Assembly (NCBI GenBank): GCA_951406725.2
Contig: OX597816.1
Span: 27,156,001 to 27,220,000, forward strand
Length of the DNA stretch: 64,000 nucleotides
From: Octopus vulgaris
Taxonomy: Eukaryota
Direction of reading: 5' to 3'
The position numbers were made by a program, and so were the translations under genes. Positions 1,750-60,129 of the stretch are shown one piece after another (the first letter of the stretch is position 1; each line of letters opens with the position of its first letter). A model generated the notes under the pieces. It did no database searches, had not been told where the DNA came from, and saw nothing but the letters and a program-made list of their open reading frames with translations.

Positions 1750-3810
1750 ACCCACTTACTACAATCAACTATCACATAAAACTGGAATGGACTTACGTGA
1801 ACTTTGTTATTGATCACTAGATAACTGCGCTGTACCTGATGTATATCCTATTCCACTTCTACAGGACTTTTCTAGCTTGCTGCATAGAACTTGCATCTTT
1901 TCAAAGATCGACCTTGTGTGAGATTACAGTCAAATCCCTGTGGAACCTGTGGAGATTCCGAAGACAGCAGTCACAACACTCTTCAGAATGTTTGAATTCC
2001 AGTGTATGCCTTTCGGTTTATGCAACTTGGCACAGACATTCCAACGTTTTATAGACTCAGTTATCAGAGGTTTGCCTTCTATCTATGCATACATAGACGA
2101 TATACACGTGGCCAGTTGCTCAGACGAAGAGCATGATTAACACCTGCACCTGCTATTCCAATACCTGTGTCAATACAGTATTATCAACCCCAGCAAGTGT
2201 TCGTTTAAAGTTGCGTCCCTTCATTTTCCTGGGCACATCGTTGATAAGGTTGGCATTTGCCCACTTCTTAATTTTCCACCAGCCACATCACGGGAATTTC
2301 TTGGCTTGGTGAATATCTACTGGAGATTTTTACTCCACTGTGCAGAGACAGCCCAACCACTCACAGATTTGCTACGACAGTGAACATGCAAAAATACAAA
2401 CAATTCCCTGAGTGAAGAACAACTTGCCTCTTTCACTTCCTTGAAAATAGTGTTATCCAATGCTACTATACTGGTGTATCCCAAACCAGATGCCCCACTG
2501 TGCGTACTAGTGGATGCATCTGATTCCAGAGTTGAACTTGTGCTCCAACAACTCACTGACGGTATTTGGCAACCTGTATCCTTCTCCAAGCGCTTAAAAC
2601 TTGCTGAGACTAAATACAGTACATTCAATCAAGAATTACTGGCAGTGTATCTCGCTGTTAAGCATTTACAACACATGCTGGAAGGTTACATTTTCTCCAT
2701 TTATACCCATTTCTTTATTACCCACAAGGGGCTAAACATAGAGGGGACAAACAAGGACAGACATGGGTATTAAGTCGATTACATCGACCCCAGTGCGTAA
2801 CTGGTACTTAAGTTATCGACGCCGAAAGGATGAAAGGCAAAGTCGACCTCGGCGGAATTTGAACTAACAACGTAACGGCAGACGAAATACCGCTAAGCAT
2901 TTCGCCCGGTGTGCTAACGTTTCTGCCAGCTCGCCGCCTATATTTCTCCATTTATACCGACCATAAACCACCAGTTCATGCCTTCAACACCAAGCCCGAT
3001 TGTCACTCACACCGGGAAGTCTGACATCTAGACTTCATATCACAGTACACAACAGACATTCACCACATTAAGGGTGCAAACAACTCTGCAGCTGATGCCC
3101 TGTTATGCATGGAACTTATCGCTATCCACACCACTGCTACCATTGATCTCCAGCAGATTGCAGCTGATGAACAAGATGATGAAGTACTATTATCGCTCCG
3201 GAATTCGTCATCTCTGAAATTTTGGGCAATCACAGGCTATATTTTGTGCGACACCTGTAGTGGTCATGAACATCCATACGTGCTTCAGAAACACAGACGT
3301 GCCGTTTTCTCTGCTCTGCATTCCCTAGCACATCCTGGTGTCCACACCACATGAAAGCTGATATCGACCCATTTAGTGTGGCCCAATATCAATAAGAACA
3401 CCTATGATTGGGCTAGGACCTGCATTGCGTGCCAAAAAGCAATGGTCCACCAACACATTAAATCTCCCATCGGTTCCTTTGCAACTCCAGATGCGCATTT
3501 TCAACACATGCATATTGACATTGTTGGACCTTTGCCTCCTTCCAACAACTGCACTCACCTGTTCAACTGTGTTGACAGATTTTCTCGCCGGCCGGAAGCT
3601 TTTCCCCTATCAGAACACTTCTGCGGAAACTGTCACCAAAACGCTGATTTCGGGTCAATATTCAGAAACACGAGTCCGTGTGTATCATAGGTTGAAGACG
3701 GGAAGGATGGCTTCCCTTTGCAAATACTGATAGAGCACAGAAAGTGTGTCAATAGCCAGCTGGAGGAGGTGTCCTCCTGGGCTACAAGCTACAGTAGCAT
3801 CCACCCTTAG
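1750..3810 (+). mobile_element. Ty3/Gypsy pol remnant (RT, RNase H, integrase) interrupted by a SINE
   Basis: MPFGLCN..QTFQRFID..YIDD; VDAS..KYSTFNQELLAVY; H..H..C..C then HIDIVGPLP..CVDRFSR; multiple stops and frameshifts. Confidence 0.92.
2708..2938 (-). mobile_element. SINE family A inserted in Gypsy RNase H region
   Basis: Flanked by target duplication TTTCTCCATTTATACC (2692-2707 and 2943-2958). Confidence 0.9.
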
Positions 3811-5325: not shown

Positions 5326-5635
5326 TATATATATATATATATATTTATTATATAGAAGGAGCTTCTACAGGACTAGAACTGTTTCATTCAAGAGAAATCT
5401 TCAGGAAGCTAGTTAACAAGAATTGTATTGGCATTTATACATTTAGGCAGGTTTAAAGGGGTGGTGGTGGGGGACTTTTTGGGGGTAGGCATAGCGCAAA
5501 AAAATCATACTTGGGGGAGTGGTCAAGGAGTCAGTGGTAAATTAGATAGAAGAATAAATAAAAGAATAAAAAAAGGGGAATAAAAAAATATATAGAAGAA
5601 TAGAGTTTTAGGTAAATAAGGAAAATCTCACTTAT

Positions 5636-25600: not shown

Positions 25601-28600
25601 TATGTTTATATACAGGGTGTCCCAAAATTAAGGCAACTGACTTTTGTCTTTGTTTGAAATCAATGGTCAGTCAGTAATTAACACACTACCAGTAATAATT
25701 AATTATCACCTTGTAAGGTAAGAAGGCATTTGTTCAGTTGTTCCATGCAGTGTGATTGAAAGATAGCCTAAGATGGGATCCAGGTAACAAAAATCTCTCC
25801 TAAAGATTTATAGTATCATTGTACTTGAGATACTACATTTAGCTAGGTCAATGAACCAACACACATTAGTGTAGAAGTTAGACAAACTATGATGATGATG
25901 ATATGATTTACTCAAAAAACTGAATCGTTCTTACTTTATATAACTAAAGAGAACTATTATTGTTATTTCAGCAAATGCTGGTTGATACCCCAGATTACCA
26001 ACAGCGTTGTCAGCATCTGGAAAAACTTCAAAATAAGTTGGAGACCCTACTAAGTCCTCAAGTTGTAGCTGCATTTAATGCACAGTCACTAGGTAAATGT
26101 TGGATTTAGTCTCTTATTAATCTCAATGGCCGTGGAGGCGCAATGGCCCAGTGGTTAGGGCAGGTGACTCGCGGTCATAGGATCGCGGTTTCGATTCCCA
26201 GACCGGGCGTTGTGAGTGTTTATTGAGCGAAAACACCTAAAGCTCCACAAGGCTCCGGCAGGGGATGGTGGTGATCCCTGCTGTACTCTTTCACTACAAC
26301 TTTCTCTCACTCTTACTTCCTGTTTCTGTTGTACCTTTATTTCAAAGGGCTGGCCTTGTCCCTCTCTGTGTCACGCTGAATATCCCCGAGAACTACGTTA
26401 AGGGTACACGTGTCTGTGGAGTGCTCAGCCACTTACACGTTAATTTCACGAGCAGGCTGTTCCGTTGATTCGGATCAACCGGAACCCTCATCGTCGTAAC
26501 CGACGGAGTGCTTCCAATCTCAATGGTCAGTCTTTTTCTCAATACAAGGGAACCGAGTTTTAAACAAACAAACAAAAAATGTAAACGTGTAATGATATTG
26601 AGAACAATGTGTGAAGAGAAGATTGCTAAATTGATTTAGAATTGTTGTTGTTGTTGTTGCTTAGCCCTGAGTCAACACTGACCAAAGATTATCCCTGTCT
26701 TTTTTTATATATGTATGTCTATATGTTTGTGTGTCTGTATAGAGACTCCCTCTTCGGCTCATGATATATATACATGTTGAATGTAAAGGTGTAGTGGTGA
26801 TAGAATTAGTAAGATAGTTCTCCTGAGTGAGTATTGGTATCGAGGTTTGACCTCAAGCCTGTAAGTTAATAAAGAACATGTTAATGTTCTTTATTGTTAG
26901 GGCATAGGAGTGGCTGTGTGGTAAGTAGCTTGCTTATGAACCACATGGTTCCGGGTTCAGTCCCACTGTGTGGCACCTTGGGCAAATGTCTTTTACTATA
27001 GCTTCGGGCCGAACAAAGCCTTGTGAGTGGATTTGGTAGACGGAAACTGAAAGAAGCCCGTCGTATATATGTATGCATATATATGTCTATATGTTTGTGT
27101 GTCTGTGTTTGTCCCCCCAACATCGCTTGACAACCGATGCTGGTGTGTTTACGTCCCCGTAACTTAGCGATAGAATAAGTACCAGGCTTACAAAGAATAA
27201 GTCCTGGAATCGATTTGCTTGACCAAAGGCGGTGCTCCAGCATGGCCACATGACTGAAACAAATAAAAAGTAAAAAAAAAAAGTAAAAGTAATGCAGTAT
27301 CCTGTTACTCCTTAGTTTCATTCTGTGTTCAGATGCAAGCAAAAGTTTTGTTTTTTTTGTCCATATGTAGGTTGATGAAATAGTTTCCAGTCATTTACTG
27401 AAATTGATTCAATTCATGACACAGATTCCCTACAATTTGTGACCTTCTGCTGAAGGGCCAAATCAGTTGTACGGTAACTAAGTAATTGCCTTGACCACAG
27501 ACACAATACAGTGCTAATGATATGTTATGAACTTGTGACCTTTGAACCAGTAACCCAACATACATCCAACAGACTTGAGTAAATTACTCAGTCAATAGTC
27601 TGATATACTATTTACTCTCTGTAATTTGCCATGCTATTTACTCAGTCAGTAATTTTCAACAGAAGTTGCTATTAGTTAATTTTGAAGTTTTCTTTGAACA
27701 GTCAGCTGTCAGTTTACCTGGATAGAAACAATGCAGTTGATAAGAATGATGGAAATTAATGCATGCAAAATTTCACACCTCTCGTACCAGTCCTTCATAG
27801 TCGGCCTATGAACTTTTCAACCTACTCTCATCTATTTGTCATTGTTTGATATATTTTTACCTATTTAACTTTCTCTCCTCCTTTAACCATATTTCTTTAC
27901 ATGATTGTATGAGGAATATTATCTATCTTCCTGTCTACACCTCCTTCGTTTTTCACCCTCTTGTACTACACTCCTTAGCAATCCTTTGCTCTGCTAAGTC
28001 AATTGCTTGTCTTCAGTTTTTTGTCCTCATTTCCTCAATCCCAGACTAACAGCTACAATGACAAAGTACTGTATTTTACAAACCTCGTGGCAATAAACTT
28101 TGTCACTCTTCCAATTCATTGATTTTTACTGAAACTAACCTTTGGACTTGCATCAACAAAGCGATATTTTGATACAAGGATATTTTATTTGGAATTTTTT
28201 TATAGAGAGCCTGTTAAAATGTAATGGTAACTCAGTGAACTGTTTGTTGAGAACTTGGTGGCTCACTATAGCATATCACTGTAGAATAATTTTCTTCTCC
28301 TTTTGCAGAAGCTACACAGACTTATGCAAAGATATTTGAGGACATCAATCGCTTGAGTCAGTTGTACAAATATTATCACAAGTGTCAGAAGGTAAGTCAG
28401 TTTTGGCATCAATTTAGGCATCAATTTAAACAACCCTCTCACTTATTCATGCACATGACAGTAATACATATCTTAAAATATCAACATTGATAAGAGCTAG
28501 GTTTTACATATAGGTATTAATGAAACTAGAAATATTGAATTTCTAAATGTCTCAACGAGACATGAGCGGTGGTGGAGCGATAGAGTGGTTGTATAAAGTC

Positions 28601-31600
28601 AACATAACGTTGACAGTCCTGTAGAGGGAATTTCACCACCGCTATTTAGCCCTAGGAAGCATCGACGCTTCCTGTCGGCTTTGACACATTTCTTGTGTCC
28701 TTATATTTGCAAAGGGGAGGCAAGCACCTCTCTGTAAATAGATATATTTGCAAAGGCTTGGCAAGTATCACCGCTAGCAGGGACTCGCTACCCTGGACTG
28801 ATGACGGGCAAGACCCAGAAACATGCATGTATTCAGGTTGCTAATCCTAACTGGTGGGGGTGCTTGCCTCCCCTTTGCGAATATAAGGACAAAGGAAATG
28901 TGTCAAAGCGAACAGGAAGCATCGATGCTTCATAGGGCTATATAGTGGTGGTGAAATTCCCTCTAGGGGACTGTCACGTTATGTTGACTTTATACAACCA
29001 CTCTATTAATAAAAAGTTATTTTAAATGTTATATGGGGTTATAGCAAGTAATTTGTTATGTAAGAGAATAAATGTACTTTTTTACAGAAATGAGTTACTA
29101 CTTTATTCATTCAACTAACCTTGAACCTTATATGAAGCTAACTAAATAAAGGTTTCTGTTCAGTTAATGTAATCCTAGCAGAGAAACAAAAGATGTATTA
29201 GCTGTGTGACTTGAAACAACTGTAATCAAGCTATTATGTCAAGGCTGAATGTGAAATGTATGGCTTGAAATTAACTGCCTTATCATGGCCATTAAGTTAG
29301 CTGCATAACTGAAGAAAATTGTCATATAATGGCTAATCATTGAGCTACATAACTTGTGTTTGCTGACGGTCATTAAATTTCCTTGATATAGTGTAACTGT
29401 TTAATTAGCTGGTCTATTGAGAGAAAGTCCAGTAGCCAGTAGCGATAATGACTGGTAAATTGAACTGTAATGGTTTGCATAGCAGTTGATAAAGGCCCAA
29501 ATGTGTGGTAAGATCTATTGGTCAAAGTCACCAATGCAGGAGCCTTTGTGGAAGGGCTCTGAAAAACAATGTACCTTTTCTTTTAAAATAGCATATACTT
29601 TTGGTATAGCCTATTATTTGGGTTAGTTCATTTCTTGATAATTTTCATTTACTGGGTTGCTCCAATAATAGCACTCCATGATGACAGTGCTTATCTGTTT
29701 ACGCCACTTCTGCCTATTTTTACAGCTAGCAGTAGCTAAATTACAACTCGGTCCACCCTGCTGCGCAGTGGGTGCTTGTCAGGTGACACTGCTCCACTTT
29801 TGGTTCCAGTCCCATTTATGCTGTTATTTGGCTCATTATTTGACATCCTTCTCTCTCTTTCGGAGAGGCACGGAGCACCTACACGCACACATACACACAC
29901 GGCAGTAACTTCCGCCTGCCGAATTCAATCACAAAGCTTCGGTCGGCTCGGGGCTATAGTAGAAGACACCTGCCCAAAGTGCCACGCAGTGGGACTGAAC
30001 CCGAAACCATGTAGCTAGGAAGCAAGCTCCCTAATCACACAGCCACGCCCGCGCCTGTGAGGGTTTTACTGTCCATGAGTATTATTTTCATAGCTTGATC
30101 ACTAAATGCACTGTCATAGTTTAATTCCACTAGACCCCAAGCTGATATTTCTTGTTCATGAGATTATTGTTATCATTATTATTATTAAGGGAAAGAGCAA
30201 TGTATGCCATCAAAGTGACACTGGGGTACAAATGTATGAAGTGCTGTATACCCATCATGACTACCTATCTAATAAGGATACACCAAGCACATGCATCACA
30301 GCCATATGTGCATGACATGGTGATCTTGTATCAAGATAAACAGTGCATGAGCTTTGTAGGTGGGGCCCAGTTAGAATCTTCTTCAAGTCGAGTAGCTCAT
30401 CCTGCTCAAAAGGTCCTTGGATGAAGGTTGTTTAAGGATGATGAACAAAACGCCCATGTTTCCCAGGGGTGAATTATTCAAACCCCCAAACATTCCTCTC
30501 AACACATGACTATGATGCTTCCCCATTACTCCTGCTCGTGATCAGAGATGCACATATAGTCAGCCGCTAAGGGTCATGCTCAACTGGTTAAGGTCAAACA
30601 ACTGATAAGCAAATCTGTAGTATTGAGCAAAATATTTGCTGTAGCCCGTCTTTTTATACCAAGATAAAATATGTACATGATAACACTTCCAATCAGTTAA
30701 GATCAGAAGCCATGAGAATCACTACCTTGTACTGCACAAATATTATCATTATATTATTATTATTATTGATATTGTTATTATTATTATTTTACAACTGACT
30801 GCATCTTTATATTCCTATCAACAGGTTCAACTGATTAATCACTGGAAGAATATTCTGGACACCAATTCTGATGACACATTCTTAGAATGGCTTACATCAT
30901 TTTACGATCATCTGTTGTCTACTTGGCATGGACAGGTGACTTAGAATTTTGTGTTATATAAATTACCTCATTCCCAAACTGGCCCCCTCCTGCATAACCA
31001 ATTTTACATGGATTTCTTTTTAAAGTGGCAAGGTTCACATTAGCTGAAGTTGTCTGAGATACACAATACCTAAAATGCAAACAACAGACTGGAGACATCT
31101 AGAATGTCTTTGATGAAAACTCTCTCCTCAACCAGTGTTTGATGAGGGTTAGACAACAACATTGGCATTCCTGCTTGACAGAGTTTCTACTGTTGGAAGA
31201 AACCAAGTTGAAACTTGGTACGACTACTGTGCCAGAATTGGGACCTTTTCCGTTCGAACGGCAGTGTCATATGAAATTGTCACCCATAATTATGACCCTA
31301 GAATTGATCTATTGCATTTCAATCTCTTTTAGGGTTAGAGGTGGGGGAAGGGTATATTTTTTTCTTCACAAATGTAAATAAACCCAATCTGTTTCTTAAA
31401 CGAGGGACATATTCATACGGCACAGAATGTTTTTTAACTCAACAGACGTCACTGATTGGTTGAAATTGCCGAAATTGAAGAAAAAAAACAACAAATATCT
31501 TACAAACTATAGAATTTTCTCAATAAAGGCAAGAGAAAAAGATGTTTTATAAACACATTCTACCAGTATACGAAGTTTAAAATTTTTTAGTTACCTAGAA

Positions 31601-35111: not shown

Positions 35112-38100
35112 TGTGTGCTATATTTAAAATTTTGTCATTTGTTGAAAGAGCTCTCTTATTCACCTTTTTTTAAAAATTATTTCATAAGGTTTCTGAAAGA
35201 TTTTCCAAAAGTATTGAGTCTGCTGTGGAATATTGTATGTCAGGTAAGCTTGAAATCATCTTTTTACTTACATGCATTGTCATCTGTTACCACTTTGTTT
35301 TCCTCTGAACACTCCTTTCTCCAAAACACCCTCCCATCTGTATTATATATTGAAGAGGTCAAGCAACAAAACAGACGTTCCTTCTCACTGACCTGAATAA
35401 AAACCCTCCATCTACTTTACTGTTACATGTTGGTTAGTCAGCTTCCACATGGGTATTAGACCTGCTTAAAATAGAAGCCAAACTTCTTAAAACTAAACCT
35501 TACAGTATTTTAAGACATGGATGGATGCATTAGTCTTGGTTTCATGCAATAGGAAAGTTTTGATAGAATTGAGTTGAGGTTACACAACTGCTATCACTAC
35601 TACAATACCAACTCTACTTCATTGTTGATATTTGATCTTCTTCCAGATAATCCAGAACATGCAGTAAGTCTCCTGGATCTACAGAAGAGTATATATGCTG
35701 TCTACCAGCCATATCTGAGCAAATATAAACATTTTGAAGAGGTTGCCCTTCAGTGTGAGCTTGATAACATCAGACTGGTGAGTTATTTATTATTTTGTTT
35801 CTGCAAGTTACACTTTAACTCTTTTATGACCATCAGTCAATCACTCAGAATCCATAACCTAGTCAGCTTTTAAATTGCAGTAATGTTAAGGTCGGCTATT
35901 CATGTTTAAACAACATTGCTTCTCATATCACATGCCACAACAGAAGCAAGCACATACCCGCAAAATTCCCATCCCACACCCTACCTGCAATTGTCCACTG
36001 AGAGGATCTTACCTCTTGAAAGCTATGGTCTAGAGAGCCACTCTCTCACTACCCAATGGTATTTATGAGATACTGCACAGGTATGACAGCCAACAACTTC
36101 AAGAGAAGATATTCTCAACATATGCACTCCTTCAGATGTAGGTACAGAGAAAGCTTTACTGCTTTATCTAGAGACTTCATGACCATGGCAACACATCACC
36201 TAATATCAAAGGGTGTATGCTCAACAGGGCTCCACCTTACTCGTCAGGGGGCTCAAAATTGCCAATTCTGCCTCCAGGAAAGGTTGCACATACATCAACA
36301 ATAGAAACCCTGAAATTTCATATTTGCTCCAGGAATCAGTCCGAAGAAGGTTTGCAAAGGTTTTTTTGAAATTTTCTCTTAACCAAATTCTTTTACTTTC
36401 TCTTATTAAGGATCATGAGGAAATTGTTGATTCTATTGGTTTACTTGGAGAATCTGTCAGCAAGCTGATGTCTTCTGCTAAAAAGGTTTGTATTATTAAG
36501 CCTTTTCATTTAAAACCAAAACATTTCTGTCAACTGTCAGACTGTCTATGACTAATTAACGACATTCTTCAATCTTAATTATCCATTCTCTTATGTAAAA
36601 TACCAAACTGGTTTGTCATTCTAAACATTGTTCTTCACAGCACACAATCACATACAAACCACAAACCATCACCATTATCATCATCTATTCCCACCCAATA
36701 AACAAGTCTTGGCCATATTTCTGCTATTAGGTCAGTTAATGTATGGTTATATATGGAGTGTATTTGCAATTTGCTAATATCTGTATTGCTAATGATTTGT
36801 ATGTGAATGGCAAATCTAGAATTTCTCTTTTATAACCTATTTTTGATGGTTTACTGAGAGGAGAAACCTCAATTCATTTTCAATGCTTCAAAAACTTGTA
36901 TGACAAGAGGTAGTTATTCTCAGTTCAGTGATCCAGCCTTGGTGCCTGCCATAGAGTGTTCTCCACTAAAGGCATCAAAGAACCAGACAGTGAAGCCAGG
37001 CAACAAGTTAGCCCACCACTTAAGACAGGAACACTCCTTTTGAAAAGCTTACACCCAGTTTCTGTTGACTAAATTTCACTCAAGTCTTTGGTTGATTTGA
37101 GGCTGTGGTAGAAGACACTTGCTCAAGGCTTCATGCAGTGGAATCAAACCCAGAACCTTGAAGTTGCTAAAAGATGCTCTTTATCAGACAGTCATACTTC
37201 TACTCATAACTGTTAATCTCTTTCATCCTGTTGGTAGATATTTGTGATGGGACCATGATACAGAGTTCCACATGACATCTGTTGTACTTAGCAACGGAGC
37301 CCTTGTACAGGAAAAGGTTAAGATGAAGAACCTCAGATCATACTGTGGACTGAGAGAAATTAGAATTTAATTTGTTGTGGGTGCTGGTTTTGGTTAATGT
37401 AACAATACCAACAGGTAGATATTTATATTTAGCTACGATCATCTTCATCATTATCAAGTCCATAAGCACCACTAGCATCACTGTCATCATCATTACCTTT
37501 AAGTCCACCACCATTACCATTTGGAATATTCTGCAACATCTCAGACCTTGTATATTAATGAAAGTAAATTTTACATTTTAGGCTAATGAGAGGTGTATCC
37601 AGTTTACTGATGGCTTTGGATATCTGTACTTATTGGAAGCCCTAAAGGTATGTCATTATATAGTATATACCAAGGTATACTGACAAACATTTACACACAT
37701 ACTCACTGACCCAAGACACACACACACACAAAGTGCAAGCATGGTTTTATAATTAAGAAGATTACTTTGCAACCATGAGGGTTTTGGGTTCCATCTCACT
37801 GAATGGCATGACCAATAACTTTGAGGCAAATTTATGAGATGTAAAGTGCTTGGAAACTCATTATTTGTGTGTGTGTGCATATCTTCACACTGGCACTATC
37901 TGAGCAAAACAGAAACATTGTTTATGCCCCTTATAAGCAGTGTCCCTTAATTTAAAAAGCAAGTACACGTTGGCAACAGGCAGGGCATCCCACCATAAAA
38001 TATTGCCTCAGTAAATGCCCAGCCTATACCAGCATGGTAAAAACAAACTATAAAACAATGAAAACATCATAAGATATATTTGAATATGCCTTTATATATT

Positions 38101-50100: not shown

Positions 50101-51957
50101 AAAGCACCCACTACACTCACGGAATGGTTGGCGTTAGGAAGGGCATCCAGCCGTAGAAACATTGCCAGATCAGACTGGGCCTGGTGCAGCCTTCTGGCTT
50201 CCCGGACCCCGGTTGAATCATCCAACCCATGCTAGCATGGAAAGCGGACGCTAAACGATGATGATGATGATGATGATGAGAGAGAGAGAAGCAGCTGGAT
50301 ATTATTATCAGCTGATATAGGAAAAATGACTGTTGGTATAGATATGAAATGAGTAAAGAGGTGTTGTTAGTGAAAGGTATCTGGAAAACTAAGATCAAGG
50401 AAGACACAAGTTTGGAAATGTGGTCCAGAAGTTTGTTTGACAACCGAATGGTGAACTTAATATCAGAGTTCAACTCCCCTGATATTTAATTGATCAATAC
50501 AGAATTTGGTAAAGAGAAACAGTATGGAATCCATTATTATTTTACACTAGCTTTTCATACTGGTCTCATATTGATTCCCACTTGAAGTTACTGCCTTTCT
50601 TGTTTTGGCTACCCTTCCTAACACCAACCATTTGACATAATGATGATGCATGCATTTTGTCTGGACACCAACTTTATCTTGCATATATACCCTCCACAAA
50701 AGAGACTTTACTGCTATTTGTTGTCCTTTGTGGTTCAAGGCAATTGCAGAAGATGAACCAAGGTGATAGTACGAAGGAGGGAAATAGTGTGATTAGAATG
50801 GAAGAGAAAGTTGAAATGAAAGAGTGTCATAAAAAAGTAATTGAACAGAGAACAGTAATGAGGGAAACCCTAATGGCAGCCTGCATGTTTGGTAAGAAAG
50901 AGGTGATGTGTTCTCATAAAAATAGTTGAGGGAAGGCATTTTGCAGTTAAGAGCATAGAAGAGCAGTGATAACGACTGAGAGTGATTGAGTGATGAATTG
51001 TTGAGGTAACAATGGTAAGAGAGTGGTGGATGTTAAGAGAAACCGGCGGCGAGAAATAAGGTGGCGAGCTGGCAGAAACGTTAGCATGCCGGGCGAAATG
51101 CTTAGCGGTATTTCGTCTGCGTTATGTTGTGAGTTCAAATTCCGCTGAGGTCGACTTTGCCTTTCATCCTTTCGGGGGTCGATGAATTAAGTACCAGTTA
51201 CGCACTGGGGTCGATGTAATCGACTTAATACCTATGTCTGTCCTTGTTTGTCCCCTCTGTGTTTAGCCCCTTGTGGGTAATAAAGAAATAGGATGTTAAG
51301 AGAAACCTGGAGAAGAAGAAGGGGAGCATGTATAGGATGTCAACTGACTCACGTTACTCAAGCACCATGATGGAAGGGAGATATTTTAATGATAAAGTGG
51401 AGCTTGAAGATGATCATTTCTAATGTGTTCCCTTATTTGATGGGTCGCAATGATATAGTGAATAGATGAAGGGACATAGAAAGGTGGAAGAATGAATAAG
51501 ATAAGAGGAGTGGGGTAGGAGACATAGTCATGGAGGTAGGTTTTATTGATTTTGAATTTTTTTTTTTTTCGCTATTTGATATTTAAAATTTAGAAAACTA
51601 AGATATTTTCATTAACAAATAGTAAATGGAACAAGAAAATTAATCTAAATCTGTAAAACTGAAACTGAAGTTAATTTTAAAAAACCCATAATTTAAGGTA
51701 ATTTTGTCACTGTCTTTAATTTTCTTCAAGTTTGTTTAATATTCTTGTAACTCTCTTAGACTCTCTCAGACTTGCCATACTTTCCATTTGCAGATTATTT
51801 ATGCAATGTTTTGGATGACCTCGGTCTAAGTGCAGAACAAATGCATGACATCAAGCAGCTGTTGAAAGCTGAACCAGATGAATTCCGGCCTCTTGCCAGT
51901 CGAATGCCTCAAAGACTGGCCAATGTGATAAGTCAGATGAGAAACATTGAGCTGTGA
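8717..51957 (+). CDS. COG7: COG7 gene span, 24 coding exons, 757 aa
   Basis: Spliced translation [21 protein letters not shown]...[34 protein letters not shown]...[23 protein letters not shown]...MRNIEL* follows recalled human COG7 ([21 protein letters not shown]...LVMKLQLFIQEVN...[23 protein letters not shown]). All introns are GT-AG with consistent phases; exon lengths sum to 2274 nt. Confidence 0.96.
8846..9490. repeat. 50-bp minisatellite (9 tandem units at 8960-9408) inside a larger duplication
   Basis: AAAGGCGTTCCTGCCATGACTATTCCATCGTGGTCGTTTTAAGACAGTGC every 50 bp. Confidence 0.95.
9656..10304. mobile_element. MITE with ~70-bp TIRs and 9-bp TSD (Mutator-like), containing SINE B
   Basis: GGTACTAC...GTAGTACC ends; TACTTTTAA duplicated at 9647-9655 and 10305-10313; internal CCCTAA-like repeats. 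Confidence 0.85.
9800..10224 (-). mobile_element. tRNA-derived SINE, family B (internal TA/TG microsatellite, AGTAAAAG tail)
   Basis: GGAGTGGCTGTGTGGTAAG...GGTTCAGTCCC head; many copies in the window; nested in a MITE. Confidence 0.88.
10693..11084 (-). mobile_element. tRNA-derived SINE, further family
   Basis: Minus strand TGGCTCAGTGGTTAGAGCG...GCTCGAATCCC head, then GTGTTCTTGAGCAAGACAC core and a GC-richer tail. Confidence 0.8.
11350..11609 (+). mobile_element. SINE family B, 3' part
   Basis: Matches the body and tail of other copies. Confidence 0.82.
12660..12752 (+). CDS. COG7: COG7 exon 2
   Basis: tttcag|[31 protein letters not shown]|gtaagt. Confidence 0.95.
12954..13369 (+). mobile_element. 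MITE family E
   Basis: TIR GGATCTTTTC(G/A)GTTTGAACGGCAGTTTTT; 8-bp TSD AATATCAT; internal CCTAACCCTAACC. Confidence 0.9.
14000..14386 (+). mobile_element. tRNA-derived SINE, family C
   Basis: A box TGGCCCAGTGG and B-box-like GGTTTTGATTCC; flanking ACATGTTTAAA repeat; second copy at 26135. Confidence 0.87.
14562..14606 (+). CDS. COG7: COG7 exon 3
   Basis: tgcag|[15 protein letters not shown]|gtaagc. Confidence 0.95.
14796..15423. mobile_element. Fold-back MITE related to family E, ~230-bp inverted arms
   Basis: TIR GGATCTTTTCCTTTTGAACGGCAG; 8-bp TSD TCATTTTT. Confidence 0.88.
15965..16307 (-). mobile_element. SINE family B, 5'-truncated
   Basis: Matches other copies. Confidence 0.85.
16887..17119 (+). 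mobile_element. SINE family A
   Basis: Full copy, flanking GGTATTTTGTC repeat. Confidence 0.88.
17363..17418 (+). CDS. COG7: COG7 exon 4
   Basis: ttcag|[18 protein letters not shown](R)|gtctct, phase 2. Confidence 0.93.
18226..18617 (-). mobile_element. SINE family B
   Basis: Matches other copies. Confidence 0.87.
18826..19378. mobile_element. Head-to-head inverted dimer of a tRNA-head short element
   Basis: Palindrome centred at 19134/19135; A and B boxes in each arm; 14-bp flanking repeat TTTACAGCATTTAG. Confidence 0.78.
19555..19639 (+). CDS. COG7: COG7 exon 5
   Basis: ataag|(R)[28 protein letters not shown]|gtaaat. Confidence 0.93.
19711..19746 (+). ncRNA. Minimal hammerhead motif, probably decayed
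   Basis: CUUU-CUGAGGA-aGAGCguugGCUC-GAAA-UG-UU-AAAG. Confidence 0.5.
20626..20715 (+). CDS. COG7: COG7 exon 6
   Basis: tttag|[30 protein letters not shown]|gtaaaa. Confidence 0.95.
21711..22551 (-). mobile_element. Retrozyme-like non-coding element (~594-nt unit, ~1.4 copies)
   Basis: Direct repeat 21711-21957 / 22306-22551, flanked by (TA)n; carries a hammerhead motif. Confidence 0.75.
21897..21997 (-). ncRNA. Type I hammerhead ribozyme motif, canonical core
   Basis: UCUACG-CUGAAGA-[GAAA..70-nt stem II..UUUC]-GAAA-CGUACG-UC-CGUAGA. Confidence 0.85.
23080..23148 (+). CDS. COG7: COG7 exon 7
   Basis: tgcag|[23 protein letters not shown]|gtaagt. Confidence 0.95.
24647..24682 (+). CDS. COG7: COG7 exon 8
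   Basis: tacag|[12 protein letters not shown]|gtaaga. Confidence 0.93.
24917..25432 (-). mobile_element. RTE-type 3' tail repeat, family D, ending in (GAT)n
   Basis: GGAGTGGTTGGCGTTAGGAAGGGCATCCAGC...CCATGCTAGCATGGAAAACGGACGTTAAA(TGA)n; at 34715-35070 the same tail directly follows decayed RTE ORF sequence. Confidence 0.8.
25972..26092 (+). CDS. COG7: COG7 exon 9
   Basis: ttcag|[40 protein letters not shown]|gtaaat. Confidence 0.95.
26135..26515 (+). mobile_element. SINE family C
   Basis: Near-identical to 14000-14386; flanking AATCTCAATGG repeat. Confidence 0.87.
26901..27290 (+). mobile_element. SINE family B
   Basis: Matches other copies. Confidence 0.87.
28309..28391 (+). CDS. COG7: COG7 exon 10
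   Basis: tgcag|(E)[27 protein letters not shown]|gtaagt. Confidence 0.95.
28580..29006. repeat. Long inverted repeat, arms 28580-28728 and 28859-29006
   Basis: ATAGAGTGGTTGTATAAAGTCAACATAACG... / ...CGTTATGTTGACTTTATACAACCACTCTAT. Confidence 0.92.
28792..28837 (+). ncRNA. Minimal type I hammerhead motif
   Basis: CCUGGA-CUGAUGA-cGGGcaagaCCCa-GAAA-CAUGCAUG-UA-UUCAGG. Confidence 0.72.
30825..30935 (+). CDS. COG7: COG7 exon 11
   Basis: aacag|[37 protein letters not shown]|gtgact. Confidence 0.94.
31241..31637 (-). mobile_element. MITE family E
   Basis: 8-bp TSD CAGAATTG. Confidence 0.88.
32126..32542 (+). mobile_element. MITE family E, degenerate ends
   Basis: Matches 12954-13369. Confidence 0.85.
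32703..32867 (+). CDS. COG7: COG7 exon 12
   Basis: taaag|[19 protein letters not shown]...LINLKQ|gtttgt. Confidence 0.93.
33086..33748 (+). mobile_element. Non-autonomous Helitron
   Basis: A|TCTATATATATAAAA start; subterminal CCG..CGG hairpin; CTAG|T end. Confidence 0.78.
34445..35080 (+). mobile_element. Two tandem RTE-type 3' ends (family D)
   Basis: Two tails; the second is preceded by [14 protein letters not shown]-like coding remnant. Confidence 0.8.
35189..35243 (+). CDS. COG7: COG7 exon 13
   Basis: ataag|[18 protein letters not shown]|gtaagc; phases fit both neighbours. Confidence 0.88.
35647..35777 (+). CDS. COG7: COG7 exon 14
   Basis: tccag|(D)[43 protein letters not shown]|gtgagt. 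Confidence 0.94.
35900..36310 (+). mobile_element. Penelope-like element GIY-YIG endonuclease remnant
   Basis: [17 protein letters not shown]...TALS...[11 protein letters not shown], preceded by a CNC motif. Confidence 0.7.
36411..36485 (+). CDS. COG7: COG7 exon 15
   Basis: ttaag|[25 protein letters not shown]|gtttgt. Confidence 0.93.
37582..37647 (+). CDS. COG7: COG7 exon 16
   Basis: tttag|[22 protein letters not shown]|gtatgt. Confidence 0.94.
38122..38260 (+). CDS. COG7: COG7 exon 17
   Basis: tttag|[14 protein letters not shown]...[16 protein letters not shown](G)|gtctgt. Confidence 0.92.
39019..39239. mobile_element. piggyBac-like MITE
   Basis: TTAA|CCCTTTCGTTAC ... GTAACGAAAGGG|TTAA. 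Confidence 0.85.
39445..39700 (-). mobile_element. LINE 3' end (RTE-like) with (TGA)n tail
   Basis: [11 protein letters not shown]...LLLWKP...[12 protein letters not shown]. Confidence 0.78.
40242..40640 (+). mobile_element. Non-autonomous Helitron
   Basis: A|TCTTTATATATAAAA start; CCCGAGCAACGCCGGG hairpin 40613-40628; CTAG|T end. Confidence 0.82.
40694..40814 (+). CDS. COG7: COG7 exon 18
   Basis: ttcag|(G)[39 protein letters not shown]|gtaagt. Confidence 0.93.
40843..41110 (-). mobile_element. SINE family B, 3' part (older SINE fragments follow to ~41470)
   Basis: Matches other copies. Confidence 0.8.
41592..42022. repeat. Compound repeat CATCCTCACTGTCACCA(CAC)n
   Basis: Direct reading. 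Confidence 0.95.
42175..42278 (+). CDS. COG7: COG7 exon 19
   Basis: tacag|(K)[34 protein letters not shown]|gtaaat; phases 2 and 1 match neighbours; weaker homology. Confidence 0.87.
42445..42697 (+). mobile_element. Family D tail
   Basis: Matches other copies. Confidence 0.8.
43690..44168 (-). mobile_element. CR1-group LINE 3' end
   Basis: [17 protein letters not shown]...TRGH..K....R...FTLRV...WNKLP. Confidence 0.85.
44389..44519 (+). CDS. COG7: COG7 exon 20
   Basis: ttcag|(G)[43 protein letters not shown]|gttagt. Confidence 0.94.
45443..45526 (+). CDS. COG7: COG7 exon 21
   Basis: tgcag|[28 protein letters not shown]|gtaaga. Confidence 0.96.
45780..46132 (-). mobile_element. SINE family B
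   Basis: Matches other copies. Confidence 0.86.
47378..47920 (-). mobile_element. Non-autonomous Helitron with a family D tail inserted near its 5' end
   Basis: Minus strand TCTCTCTATATA start; terminal hairpin and CTAGT at 47378-47418. Confidence 0.65.
48123..48237 (+). CDS. COG7: COG7 exon 22
   Basis: aacag|[38 protein letters not shown]|gtaatg. Confidence 0.96.
48404..48792 (-). mobile_element. SINE family B
   Basis: Matches other copies. Confidence 0.87.
49135..49406 (+). mobile_element. MITE family E, right part
   Basis: Matches 13095-13369. Confidence 0.83.
49690..49821 (+). CDS. COG7: COG7 exon 23
   Basis: tgtag|(D)[43 protein letters not shown]|gtaagt. Confidence 0.96.
49932..50279 (+). 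mobile_element. Family D tail with internal GGCACGTAAAAAGCACC repeats
   Basis: Matches other copies. Confidence 0.8.
51060..51291 (+). mobile_element. SINE family A
   Basis: Full copy, flanking GGATGTTAAGAGAAACC repeat. Confidence 0.88.
51794..51957 (+). CDS. COG7: COG7 exon 24 (terminal coding part)
   Basis: tgcag|(D)[53 protein letters not shown] with tandem TGA TAA. Confidence 0.96.
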
Positions 51958-52029
51958 TAACAGACCGTATGCTCCAGGATACTTCATAACAAATTGTTGG
52001 TTTTATTTATTTTTGAGTGTATGTGCATG

Positions 52030-52076
<47 letters not shown>

Positions 52077-52300
52077 AGCAACAAGAATATCTTTGGTAAT
52101 TTGGTACCGAAGTTATTCTTGTTGCTTATTTTGATTATAATCACCCCATGGATTTTAATGGATAACACCATACAAAATTCTGGTGCATCTAACTTAAGTA
52201 CCATATTCATTTGAATCTAAATTTTGCTGAACTTATATATATATATACTGGAGTAAACACATAAATGTGAAACAAGGTGGAAAAAAGAGTACTCAAATAC

Positions 52301-52356
52301 CAGCAAAAACTGTCTGATGAACGGCAACGGGAAACTCAGAGTAACAGGTTTTGTTG
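52301..52356 (+). ncRNA. Minimal type I hammerhead motif in putative COG7 3' UTR
   Basis: CAGCAAAAACUGU-CUGAUGA-aCGgcaaCGg-GAAA-CUCaGAG-UA-ACAGGUUUUGUUG. Confidence 0.68.
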
Positions 52357-52373
52357 AATTTTCTGCTGCTTTA

Positions 52374-52379
52374 AATAAA
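52374..52379 (+). terminator. First canonical AATAAA after the COG7 stop (alternative near 54020)
   Basis: Motif scan only; usage unknown. Confidence 0.35.
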
Positions 52380-52415
<36 letters not shown>

Positions 52416-53374
52416 GTTAGGAGGCACAAGCATGTACACACACATGTACACACACGGTGATAACTTCCGCCTACCAAATTCAGTTACAAGGCTTTGGTCA
52501 GCCACACGCATTTACACACGTACAAACAAGAAAAGGGCATGATACACATTACGTAGAGTTCATATTTGTAATGGGATAGTTGGTAACTCACTTGGCCACT
52601 CAGTTTCATGGACACTAAACCAGGTGCCTTGTTGACCAAATACCCATGATGGTTACACACAAGTTTTCGTATCTATAACCTTTTGAATAACAGCCATATA
52701 GATTTTCAAACCAAGGTTACTTATTACCTCGGTTTAAATATATGGAAAAAAACCCCAAAAAAACAGCACACCAAGTATTGAGTACTAATACACACACAGG
52801 TAACATACAGAAAGATCCAGTGACTGCATTTTCTGTTTATCTGTTCCATAACAATATTCATTATAATGTCATTAATATATTTCCTTTAGGTGGGTATTTG
52901 GAAGTAGTGATATCCATGCCTTTCTGAAACAGGGTTACAAATACAGGAGAAATCAAATGGTTCTGCTTACCAAGAGTTTACTCACATGCATGTATATATG
53001 TTTATTCAGGGGAAGAAATTAGAAGATTAATCATGTCACTTCAGATGATTTTGAAACTCAAAAGAAGCATGCACTCTACCATGTTACTCAGCACTTTACT
53101 TTAAATTGTGGTTCTCCCAGGCTTCTAAATGTGTAACACACACATAGGTTAAATACGGTTCATTATATTCATGGAGTAGAAATTATAGACATGTAAATAC
53201 ATAGAAATCATCTAATATTTTGAAGTGGTGGCAGAGGTTACATTTTAACACATTTTTTAAATTTCCATTAACAGCCAAACAGTGGCTTTTGATTCACTAC
53301 TGGCAACAGTTATCACAGTATCATCAAAATCAATGATTTTTTTTTCTTGTTTTTCCTTCTGTTGGGTGATGTGA

Positions 53375-53418
<44 letters not shown>

Positions 53419-53521
53419 AATGTGAGGATAAAATTATTTTCGAAAAAAATATTTTCTCGAAAAAAATTTTATCAATGGCCAGCAATATTAAAAAATACCT
53501 TTAACGGTTAAATTTATAAAC

Positions 53522-53791
53522 AATTCATAAATGAGGGCAAAGAAAAAAAATTCTAATGCCAGATATGCCGAAAAATTGGACATATTGTCCATTAACCATA
53601 TAATTTTTTCACAATACGCACACTACTCGAAAAAAGGCCGACAAATTTCTAAAAAATTCCATTATTACCATATCGGACCATTTTGAGTAGCGTGCGTATT
53701 GTGAAAAAATTATATGGTTAATGGACAATATGTCCAATTTTTTGGCATATTTGGCATTAGAATTCTTTTCCTTTGCCCTCATTTATGAATT
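53522..53791. repeat. Long inverted repeat, ~120-bp arms, between (TA)n tracts
   Basis: AATTCATAAATGAGGGCAAAG... / ...CTTTGCCCTCATTTATGAATT. Confidence 0.9.
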
Positions 53792-54324
53792 ATATATATA
53801 TATATATATTATTAGTTTTGTCTGTTGTTGAGGAACTTGCCAGAACAATTCAGTGTCAAGAGAGAAACATTCCAGGCAGAATGTTCCATTATTTCCATCT
53901 TATGTAGCAGCAGCAGACGGAAGACTTTTATAAATAATCTGCCTTTCCTTTCTTTCAGTAAAAGACTTATTTGCTCAGACAGAAAGAAAAAATTATATTA
54001 ATAGGGAAAACTGTAAATAAATAAAAAGAGGGACAAAATGTATCCCAAATTATGTTATGATGTTCGATGTCTTATTTATTTTATATTGCATTCTGTGTTG
54101 TCGGTCAGGAGGTCCCAGTGGGACAGTCACTGGTTTATTGTATTTTCAATGGTGAGAGAGAGAGTGACAAGAGAGTGTCCATACAGGTTGAGTTGTAAAA
54201 TATGACATGGTGGTATCTGGCTTTCATTTGAAACAAATCAGTTTTCTATGATTATAGATCAGTAAGATTTATCCCGTTTTGGGGGGAGCAAACAGAGACT
54301 TATGTTATTGTTCATTATCTAGAG

Positions 54325-58970: not shown

Positions 58971-59304
58971 CTGAAGAGAAAAGAAAAGTAACAATTAGGA
59001 ACATAATTCAGATCAGACATCAAAATTAAATTATTTGATTTTCCTCCTTTAACAACTAAACTCATGTGATTTTCCACAATAATGTTTTTGTAGAATTGCT
59101 GTAAGAAAAGTCAAGTAGGTATCAATGTCATAGGGTTGGAAAACATCACAAACACTAGCATTTCTCTCTGACTGAAAATAAAAGACAAACCCTACTGACT
59201 AGAATATCAATGTCTCACACTGTTGTCATCAATGTTACTTTGGATCCTTGACAAAGACAGTCAACTGTTTAATATAATCAGTGGTTGTGTGATTCCTTTA
59301 ATGT

Positions 59305-59960
59305 GTGTTAGTGGAGGCACATTGTCTTGTTACTGCATCGTCCCTCTATACATCTTATACTATAGACTACATTTCTGGCTTTACAGTTTGTTTGTGGGCT
59401 AAATCTACACACGGTAAAGTTCCTATCAGTACAGGGGGTTCTACTAAAAGGGTAGGTTCTACCGATTATGGATTTGATAGGGTTGCCTGGCCTGTCAACA
59501 ACCTTAATCCTTAGCTTAAGTTTGTCTAGGGTTCTTCTAAAGCGGTACGCCAGTTCACCTCTAGGGGTGGTGTCGACGAACATGACACTCTGGTATTTGT
59601 GGCTATCATACCAAGAGTTGGCCTTCCTTATTTTCTTCTTTGTCCTTTCAATGACTTGCTCCTATAGAGTGGGCAAATTCCATTCCTATCATTACATAAG
59701 ATAGCATCAAATTTCTTCATGGCTCCTTTGTATACGCTGATCCTTTCTTTATGGCTGTAACCTGAGAACTGCATGCGGTGAACGAAATGTTCTATGTGTC
59801 TCTTTAACTCTGTAGGCTCGCACATGCGGGATACATTTCGCATTATTCTGACGAAGTCTGCCATCAAAATATTGAAATTGGCATTGTCCGCGATAGCTGA
59901 GTTCCTGTGGATCAAGTATTTGGAGGCCATAGGTTTGGCATAGTACGAACGAAGGATTTG
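59305..59960 (-). mobile_element. Penelope-like element fragment (RT thumb to start of GIY-YIG)
   Basis: YAKPMASKYLIHRNSA...RMQFSGYS...PLYRS; FVDTTPRGELA...C...NC...NVVYSIRC; frameshifted. Confidence 0.78.
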
Positions 59961-60129
59961 GGCTTTATAAAAAAATAAATAACACTGAAGCAAAGTAACA
60001 CCAAATATATAGTGCGTGTGTTTTTATTGGCTAAACTGGCAAAATGACCATTCCGAAATACAACAATATCTGTTTCAACACATGATTTCACATCAAAAAT
60101 CTTGCAAAACAAATATATATATATATCTT

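Follow-up and report, generated by a model that had tools for sequence, protein, structure and literature searches.

The hammerhead motif behind the COG7 stop codon of Octopus vulgaris is probably a passenger remnant of a Hydra-clade PLE

The hammerhead motif that follows the COG7 stop codon in Octopus vulgaris is, with good confidence, a passenger remnant: the 3' end of a Hydra-clade Penelope-like element (PLE), a retrotransposon, that was inserted in a TA repeat and that likely does nothing important for COG7. The COG7 insert was traced to its repeat family, whose copies were counted, and to an intact parent, and it was resolved into an inverted tail and a truncated arm. The best explanation for the hammerhead and the AATAAA found together in this insert is that both arrived as standard parts of the element. 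A first-pass annotation of this DNA had described a transposon-donated cassette that could give COG7 mRNA both a poly(A) signal and a conditional self-cleavage site. The transposon origin stands, carried by the family and its intact parent; the poly(A) and conditional cleavage roles are not supported.

Results

The insert and its hammerhead motif

The window, by which we mean the whole 64-kb stretch that was analysed, contains COG7, identified by a last exon that aligns to positions 722-772 of the 772 in Pfam COG7 and by 12 exon matches in the genome, all of which fall at this single locus. The features behind the stop codon are collected in Table 1. Runs of (TA)n at ~52234-52246 and ~52381-52411 flank the insert on both sides, which bears out the TA-flanked insert of the first-pass annotation (~52247-52381), and the AATAAA inside it is indeed the first canonical one after the COG7 stop. 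The arm, which carries the hammerhead, aligns to positions 3381-3464 of the stretch taken from locus L152.

Table 1. Features of the COG7 3' region (window positions)
Feature	Position	Strand	Basis or remark
COG7 last coding exon	51793..51958	+	TGA 51956-51958; Pfam COG7; splice 49820 -> 51793, GT..AG
Whole PLE remnant, 135 nt	52247..52381	.	dispersed repeat; boundaries common to other copies
Inverted truncated tail piece, 57 of ~72 nt	52247..52303	-	94-98% identity to intact-element tails
Type I minimal hammerhead motif	52301..52356	+	sequence, Hydra-clade layout match, folding
5'-truncated tail-less PLE 3' arm	52302..52380	+	93.5-97.4% identity to intact-element arms
U4 of core	52315	+	likely CpG C-to-T change from the subfamily's CCGAUGA
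Element's own AATAAA	52374..52379	+	at most 45 nt from core in 54/60 copies
Contig-covered stretch, likely further COG7 3' UTR	52420..54060	+	contigs (strandless), hexamers

Read from the sequence, stem I of the motif has 12 of 13 possible pairs (52301-52313 / 52344-52356, mismatch A52309/G52348) and is followed by the core CTGATGA (RNA CUGAUGA) at 52314-52320. Stem II (A-CG-GCAA-CG-G, 52321-52330) has 2 bp, a GCAA loop and an unpaired A52321/G52330 at its base; a GAAA box lies at 52331-52334, and stem III (CTC-A-GAG, 52335-52341, then TA) is near-palindromic as ACUC-A-GAGU. The predicted cut falls after 52343. These parts (stems I-III, CUGAUGA, GAAA and the cut position) are the ones that had been reported in the first-pass annotation, and all were confirmed. 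The core boxes of PLE hammerheads (CUGANGA, GAAA and UH), together with stem I, are all present, as is a short palindromic stem III that permits a dimer (ACUC-A-GAGU self-duplex, -7.4 kcal/mol). The COG7 motif lacks G10.1-C11.1, the pair that closes stem II at its base, and has the A52321/G52330 mismatch instead. A relaxed hammerhead descriptor gave 4 matches in the 64-kb window, as compared to 1 in total over 20 shuffles.

Other matches to the descriptor, weaker and with CTGAAGA cores, lie at window positions 5404 (-) and 43119 (-). A further minimal hammerhead at 28792-28839 (+), within ~28600-28990, sits on the sense strand inside the COG7 gene and is better formed, with a 6-bp stem I, CTGATGA, a 3-bp stem II and a palindromic ACATGCATGT stem III. 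It lies near the centre of what by eye is an apparent long inverted repeat, and its family differs from that of the copy in the UTR.

A search for relatives of the 135-nt insert returned 62 matches from the 40 scored of 562 candidates. The exact junction of tail and arm occurs at only 2 places in the genome, the COG7 insert included, and on this ground an amplified 135-nt mini-element was rejected.

Besides the insert, this UTR has two further TA-flanked repeats. Upstream in the same UTR, a TA-flanked repeat with an inverted 5' end (52072-52240; 83 matches, 40 scored of 1,380 candidates) is probably the end of another PLE family. A third TA-flanked insert, at 53417-53804 in the likely UTR, contains an ATTAAA at 53487 and has inverted arms of 124 nt that are 92% complementary (53509-53632 / 53681-53804); within the mRNA, these arms could pair into long double-stranded RNA. 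Upstream of COG7, broken frames at ~1800-3730 (+) resemble, by eye, LTR-retrotransposon pol (RT, RNase H, integrase), and other PLE-like ORF fragments with GIY-YIG-like motifs lie at ~59300-60020 (-) and 36020-36300 (+) of the window.

A high-copy family with an intact parent

A 35-nt core pattern was searched across the genome for exact matches only. Position 11.1 is G or T in 1,904 of the matches and A in another 3,614, for a total of at least 5,518 exact matches; reversed control patterns gave 0 matches genome-wide. The resulting density of ~2 motifs per Mb is a lower bound because only exact matches were counted, and chance alone is therefore expected to place a sense copy in one 3' UTR or another. 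Every counted motif spans the cut site, and the copies were therefore made from uncut or re-joined RNA.

Sixty copies, the first 30 loci of each list (L031-L060 and L164-L193), were sampled for their layout. (TA)4 or longer lies within 130 nt downstream in 58 of these, AATAAA at most 45 nt from the core in 54, and an optional tail of ~72 nt is found in 27. Inverted pairs with (TA)n on either side are a frequent arrangement of family copies, and three variants of the stem II base occur within the family (A-U, A/G and A/A). In the same sample, 38 of the 60 arms end at most 14 nt upstream of the core pattern, with truncation points clustered at the outer edge of stem I; many arms stop at CTAG, the centre of perfect hairpin insertions. 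The clustered 5' ends may mark a fold-back hotspot of the reverse transcriptase in a sample that is biased by the pattern search.

Longer copies extend 5' through a 1.1-kb UTR into an ORF. In a protein search, more than 40 of the 150 matches listed lie in stop-free frames of at least 716 aa. The intact parents encode a 727-aa RT/GIY-YIG ORF, with frames of 716-735 aa that have YRDD and a VVY...YTG endonuclease region. Among 20 regions chosen for their long frames, which contain 21 ORFs, the hammerhead lies 1.0-1.2 kb past the stop in all 21. The architecture is that of PLEs: a tandem at L144, an upstream arm and a tail in most intact copies, and inverted pairs. The intact copies are nearly the same (94-100% protein identity), suggesting an element that was active recently or still is.

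According to Craig et al. 2021 (PMC8557442), Hydra-clade PLEs are marked by RWK, a DKG changed to DKT, CxCx5C, CxxC, CxH, the absence of CCHH and insertion in (TA)n. DKT and YRDD were found in 21/21 ORFs of the chosen regions and RWK, CxxC and CxH in 20/21 each, while the CxCx5C linker is present in 11/21, with one example reading CNF for CNC. An example protein has no cysteines between VVY and YTG, as checked for CCHH, and (TA)n flanks 58 of the 60 sampled copies as described above. By these motif tests, the family is assigned to the Hydra clade; a Neptune-clade parent, also considered, was dropped after the Hydra motifs were found in the ORFs. The reading of the ORF as RT with GIY-YIG draws on its motifs and on its likeness by eye to published Hydra proteins. 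Pfam gave no match on four fragments of the parent ORF and nothing informative on five homologs, a PDB search returned weak, unrelated matches only, and nearly all of the 297 proteins from a homolog search are unnamed.

Subfamilies and the origin of the canonical core

In intact elements, the core is CUGAUGA and position 11.1 is A in 21/21 ORF copies, with an A/A stem II base, and CUGAUGA is likewise found in 100/100 of the first rows in the list with A at 11.1. In the group with G or T at 11.1, CCGA (C4) accounts for 1,789 motifs as compared to 115 with CUGA (U4). At least two core generations are thus seen: C4 with A-U or A/G in decayed copies, and U4 with A/A in intact copies. A family-wide C4 core was accordingly rejected: U4 combined with A at 11.1 is the state of the intact copies and of 3,614 motifs.

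At three diagnostic sites (52330, 52348 and the run before AATAAA) the letters of the COG7 copy are the older ones, and it differs from the majority of the fetched loci at 52249 and 52315 only, both CpG C-to-T changes. By these letters, the copy is a member of an older subfamily that mostly reads CCGAUGA, and its CUGAUGA is most likely an accident of CpG decay after insertion. The U4 count of 115 in the G/T background fits such decay because control changes at CpG sites are of similar frequency: C-to-T at the CpG of stem II occurs 104 times (p=0.50), and the mirror change at the CpG that contains U4 occurs 80 times. A non-CpG C-to-T control gave 23 in this background. U4 is slightly commoner than its mirror change (p=0.015), and some U4 copies may therefore descend from a U4 source. 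Descent from such an intermediate source is possible for a minority of the U4 copies. U4 is spread across sub-haplotypes like the group as a whole (p=0.82, hand count of the first 100 rows per list).

The COG7 3' UTR and the AATAAA of the element

Contigs of sequencing runs were compared with the locus, among them X1, X2 and X13, presumed to be RNA-type, and X17. The first three, which come from three studies and two organisms, have contigs in which the last COG7 intron is spliced out (49820 -> 51793), and X17 does not; the splice join supports the presumption for these three runs. Their contigs cover unique sequence at 52420-53365 or 52420-53484, beyond the AATAAA of the insert, and those of X1 and X13 are also found at 53821-54004 or 53821-54060. 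Contigs carry no strand, end or level, and cover in RNA-type runs becomes thin beyond ~54,060, which was not taken as the mRNA end. Two downstream hexamers stand out, an ATTAAA at 53487 and an AATAAA at 54016 with a GU/U-rich stretch after it. These data fit a 3' UTR that extends 1.0-1.7 kb past the AATAAA of the insert, toward ATTAAA 53487 or AATAAA 54016.

No contig bridges the insert, because the TA runs are masked, and none of 4 runs compared shows a locus-specific insert junction; for organisms B and C, the contigs are interrupted at the flanking TA runs. The read-through may therefore come from insert-free alleles.

It is conceivable, if unlikely, that the ribozyme is silent and the AATAAA of the element acts as a minor, alternative signal for poly(A) addition, which would give some COG7 transcripts a short 3' UTR. 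The hexamer is the first canonical one after the stop and lies on the sense strand, and a minor end is compatible with the contigs. Against such a site, they cover unique sequence 1.0-1.7 kb beyond the AATAAA. The hexamer is followed by (TA)n with no GU/U-rich element, whereas the AATAAA at 54016 has one. Furthermore, the templates of the element ran at least 72 nt past the AATAAA in 27/60 copies, which suggests a weak signal. Of the two roles proposed in the first-pass annotation, the donated poly(A) signal thus finds no support: the hexamer belongs to the element as standard, and the contigs continue for 1 kb past it.

Predicted folding and the capacity for cleavage

As a monomer, the COG7 motif is predicted to form stem III with a probability of 0.0005-0.0006 in three sequence contexts. 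With U4, the CUGA of the core can pair with the UCAG of stem III, giving a predicted inactive fold; this helix has a predicted probability of 0.98-0.99, and the hammerhead fold is predicted to lie 5.5 kcal/mol above the best fold. In these models, the single COG7 copy is trapped in the inactive fold. Among the C4 variants, the predicted probability of stem III is mostly 0.1-0.3, and 0.005 in one. That C4 evolved to avoid the CUGA/UCAG misfold is less credible given how well the U4 subfamily has done. The young U4 A/A subfamily has the same predicted misfold, yet it has spread most widely, and the misfold is therefore no proof that the element has no use for its motif.

Published work on related ribozymes frames these predictions. 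A single minimal hammerhead of S. mansoni showed no cleavage and its dimers cleaved at a low level (Cervera and De la Pena 2014, PMC4209133). Perreault et al. (PMC3088659) describe hammerheads that are active with stems II of 1-2 bp or with U-U mismatched at positions 10.1-11.1; in a viroid, they report, a U4C variant still works in vivo. The Anolis PLE hammerhead is reported to cleave in vitro and to be dispensable for insertion in vitro, with no RNA-seq reads ending at its cut site (PMC11167929). The first-pass annotation had noted that minimal PLE hammerheads are weak as monomers, and both the predicted misfold and the published PLE monomer that does not cleave agree with it. The conditional self-cleavage site that it proposed is, by comparison, left unsupported by a motif with no closing pair in stem II, a predicted misfold and no nearby partner.

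Dimers were also modeled. The active homodimer is predicted at -28.8 kcal/mol, as compared to -28.2 for two monomers and -30.6 for a misfolded dimer. With three family variants, active heterodimers are 1.4-4.8 kcal/mol more stable than two monomers, and in each of the three cases the misfolded heterodimer is more stable than the active one. No second copy of the same family lies within the 64-kb window to pair with.

These energies bear on cleavage in trans, where COG7 mRNA would be cut upon pairing with RNA of the family through the palindromic stem III and activity of the element would lower COG7 expression. Stated for the family, an active Hydra-clade PLE would have seeded thousands of near-identical half-ribozymes, some of them in mRNA 3' UTRs, that are cut only in trans with RNA of the element. 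We regard both forms of this proposal as highly improbable. Its attractions are the self-complementary stem III (-7.4 kcal/mol as a duplex), the margin of the active heterodimers over two monomers, the presence of family-arm sequence in contigs of RNA-type runs and the existence of intact parents. Opposed to these are the greater stability of the misfolded dimer in each case, the missing 10.1-11.1 pair in the COG7 half and the lack of a same-family partner in the window. Moreover, PMC4209133 reports that dimers of minimal PLE hammerheads cleave poorly even in cis, and pairing at cellular concentrations seems unlikely.

A chance resemblance to a hammerhead, with which the absence of a hammerhead at the COG7 motif in Rfam at the gathering score, its absence among 30 matches relaxed to E=10, and a region that folds no better than shuffles (z = -1.1, best fold not a hammerhead) would agree, is already refuted by the family context and has next to no probability: the motif lies where 21/21 intact ORF copies carry their hammerheads, its layout agrees with published Hydra-clade motifs, and shuffles yield about none.

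Discussion

The passenger remnant described here could have arisen in a few steps. The endonuclease of the element would have cut (TA)n in the COG7 3' UTR, and the reverse transcriptase would then have copied only the last 60-80 bases, twice and in opposite directions. Alternatively, a longer hairpin may have been inserted and later lost its middle. After insertion, two CpG sites would have decayed, one of these changes turning CCGAUGA into CUGAUGA. The new CUGA is predicted to pair with the UCAG of stem III, giving an inactive hairpin in the single copy, and COG7 mRNA would mostly be read through uncut and end downstream, perhaps near the AATAAA at 54016.

Hydra-clade PLE hammerheads are already known, and the family and locus presented here are a further member. 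We found no description of this PLE family or of the COG7 locus in the mostly open-access hammerhead literature on PLE, cephalopod, variant and Clec2 topics. The Hydra-clade PLEs of PMC8557442 (Hydra-2_Amil, Penelope-3_HM, Hydra-1_Obim) likewise have a single ORF with RT and C-terminal GIY-YIG, a (TA)n target and a type I hammerhead near the 3' end, with the same layout in File S2 of that paper. The motif of Hydra-2_Amil is nearly the same as that of the COG7 family (stem I ctgt/acag, stem III actc-g-gagt-a). Hydra-1_Obim, an octopus member in File S1, has another hammerhead by eye, and its family differs from that of the COG7 insert. Differences from the elements in PMC8557442 are also seen. 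The unit of the COG7-insert family is ~3.4 kb with a 1.1-kb 3' UTR, as compared to <3 kb for most of the published Hydra PLEs, and the tail is ~72 nt instead of 30-40. Unlike the published Hydra motifs, those of the family have a stem II of no more than 2 bp with A-U, A/G or A/A at the base, and core position 4 is C in the older subfamilies, whereas all Hydra rows of File S2 read ctga.

The minimal PLE hammerheads of PMC4209133 are similarly type I, with a short palindromic stem III, and are dimer-dependent and weak; they too are dispersed as single motifs in truncated copies, often in opposite-strand pairs. As described there, they have a conserved G10.1-C11.1 and often a long stem II, whereas in the COG7 motif both are lacking and stem I is long. 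The 3' UTR hammerheads of rodent Clec2 (Martick et al. 2008, via PMC2950038 and PMC6765202), which had been offered as an analogy in the first-pass annotation, also lie on the sense strand between stop codon and poly(A) signal. As summarized in these two sources, the Clec2 ribozymes are discontinuous, are known from several mammals, show cleavage in vitro and reduce the output of a reporter by 80%. The COG7 motif is unlike them in being compact and dimer-type and in lying within a recent, high-copy repeat, and the analogy fails on architecture. Active folding of a single copy, as in Clec2, is not predicted for the COG7 motif, with its stem III probability of 0.0005-0.0006. The non-LTR retrozymes of bioRxiv 10.64898/2026.07.22.740005 share PLE-related type I hammerheads, and their exon-overlapping copies tend toward 3' UTRs; they are described as tandem non-coding units, whereas the COG7 insert is the single truncated end of an autonomous PLE.

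As found, the COG7 copy is one of thousands of PLE ends and matters little; it does illustrate that CpG changes can by accident give a 3' UTR a textbook ribozyme core. Cleavage in trans, if true, would add a new mode of host mRNA regulation by a transposon, with retroelement expression as the trigger. For the family itself, PMC8557442 poses as an open question whether EN+ PLEs need their hammerheads. C4 cores (~1,800 motifs) and U4 cores without the closing pair of stem II (~3,600, intact elements included) have both spread widely, and the family, with these subfamilies as natural variants, is of modest value for this question.
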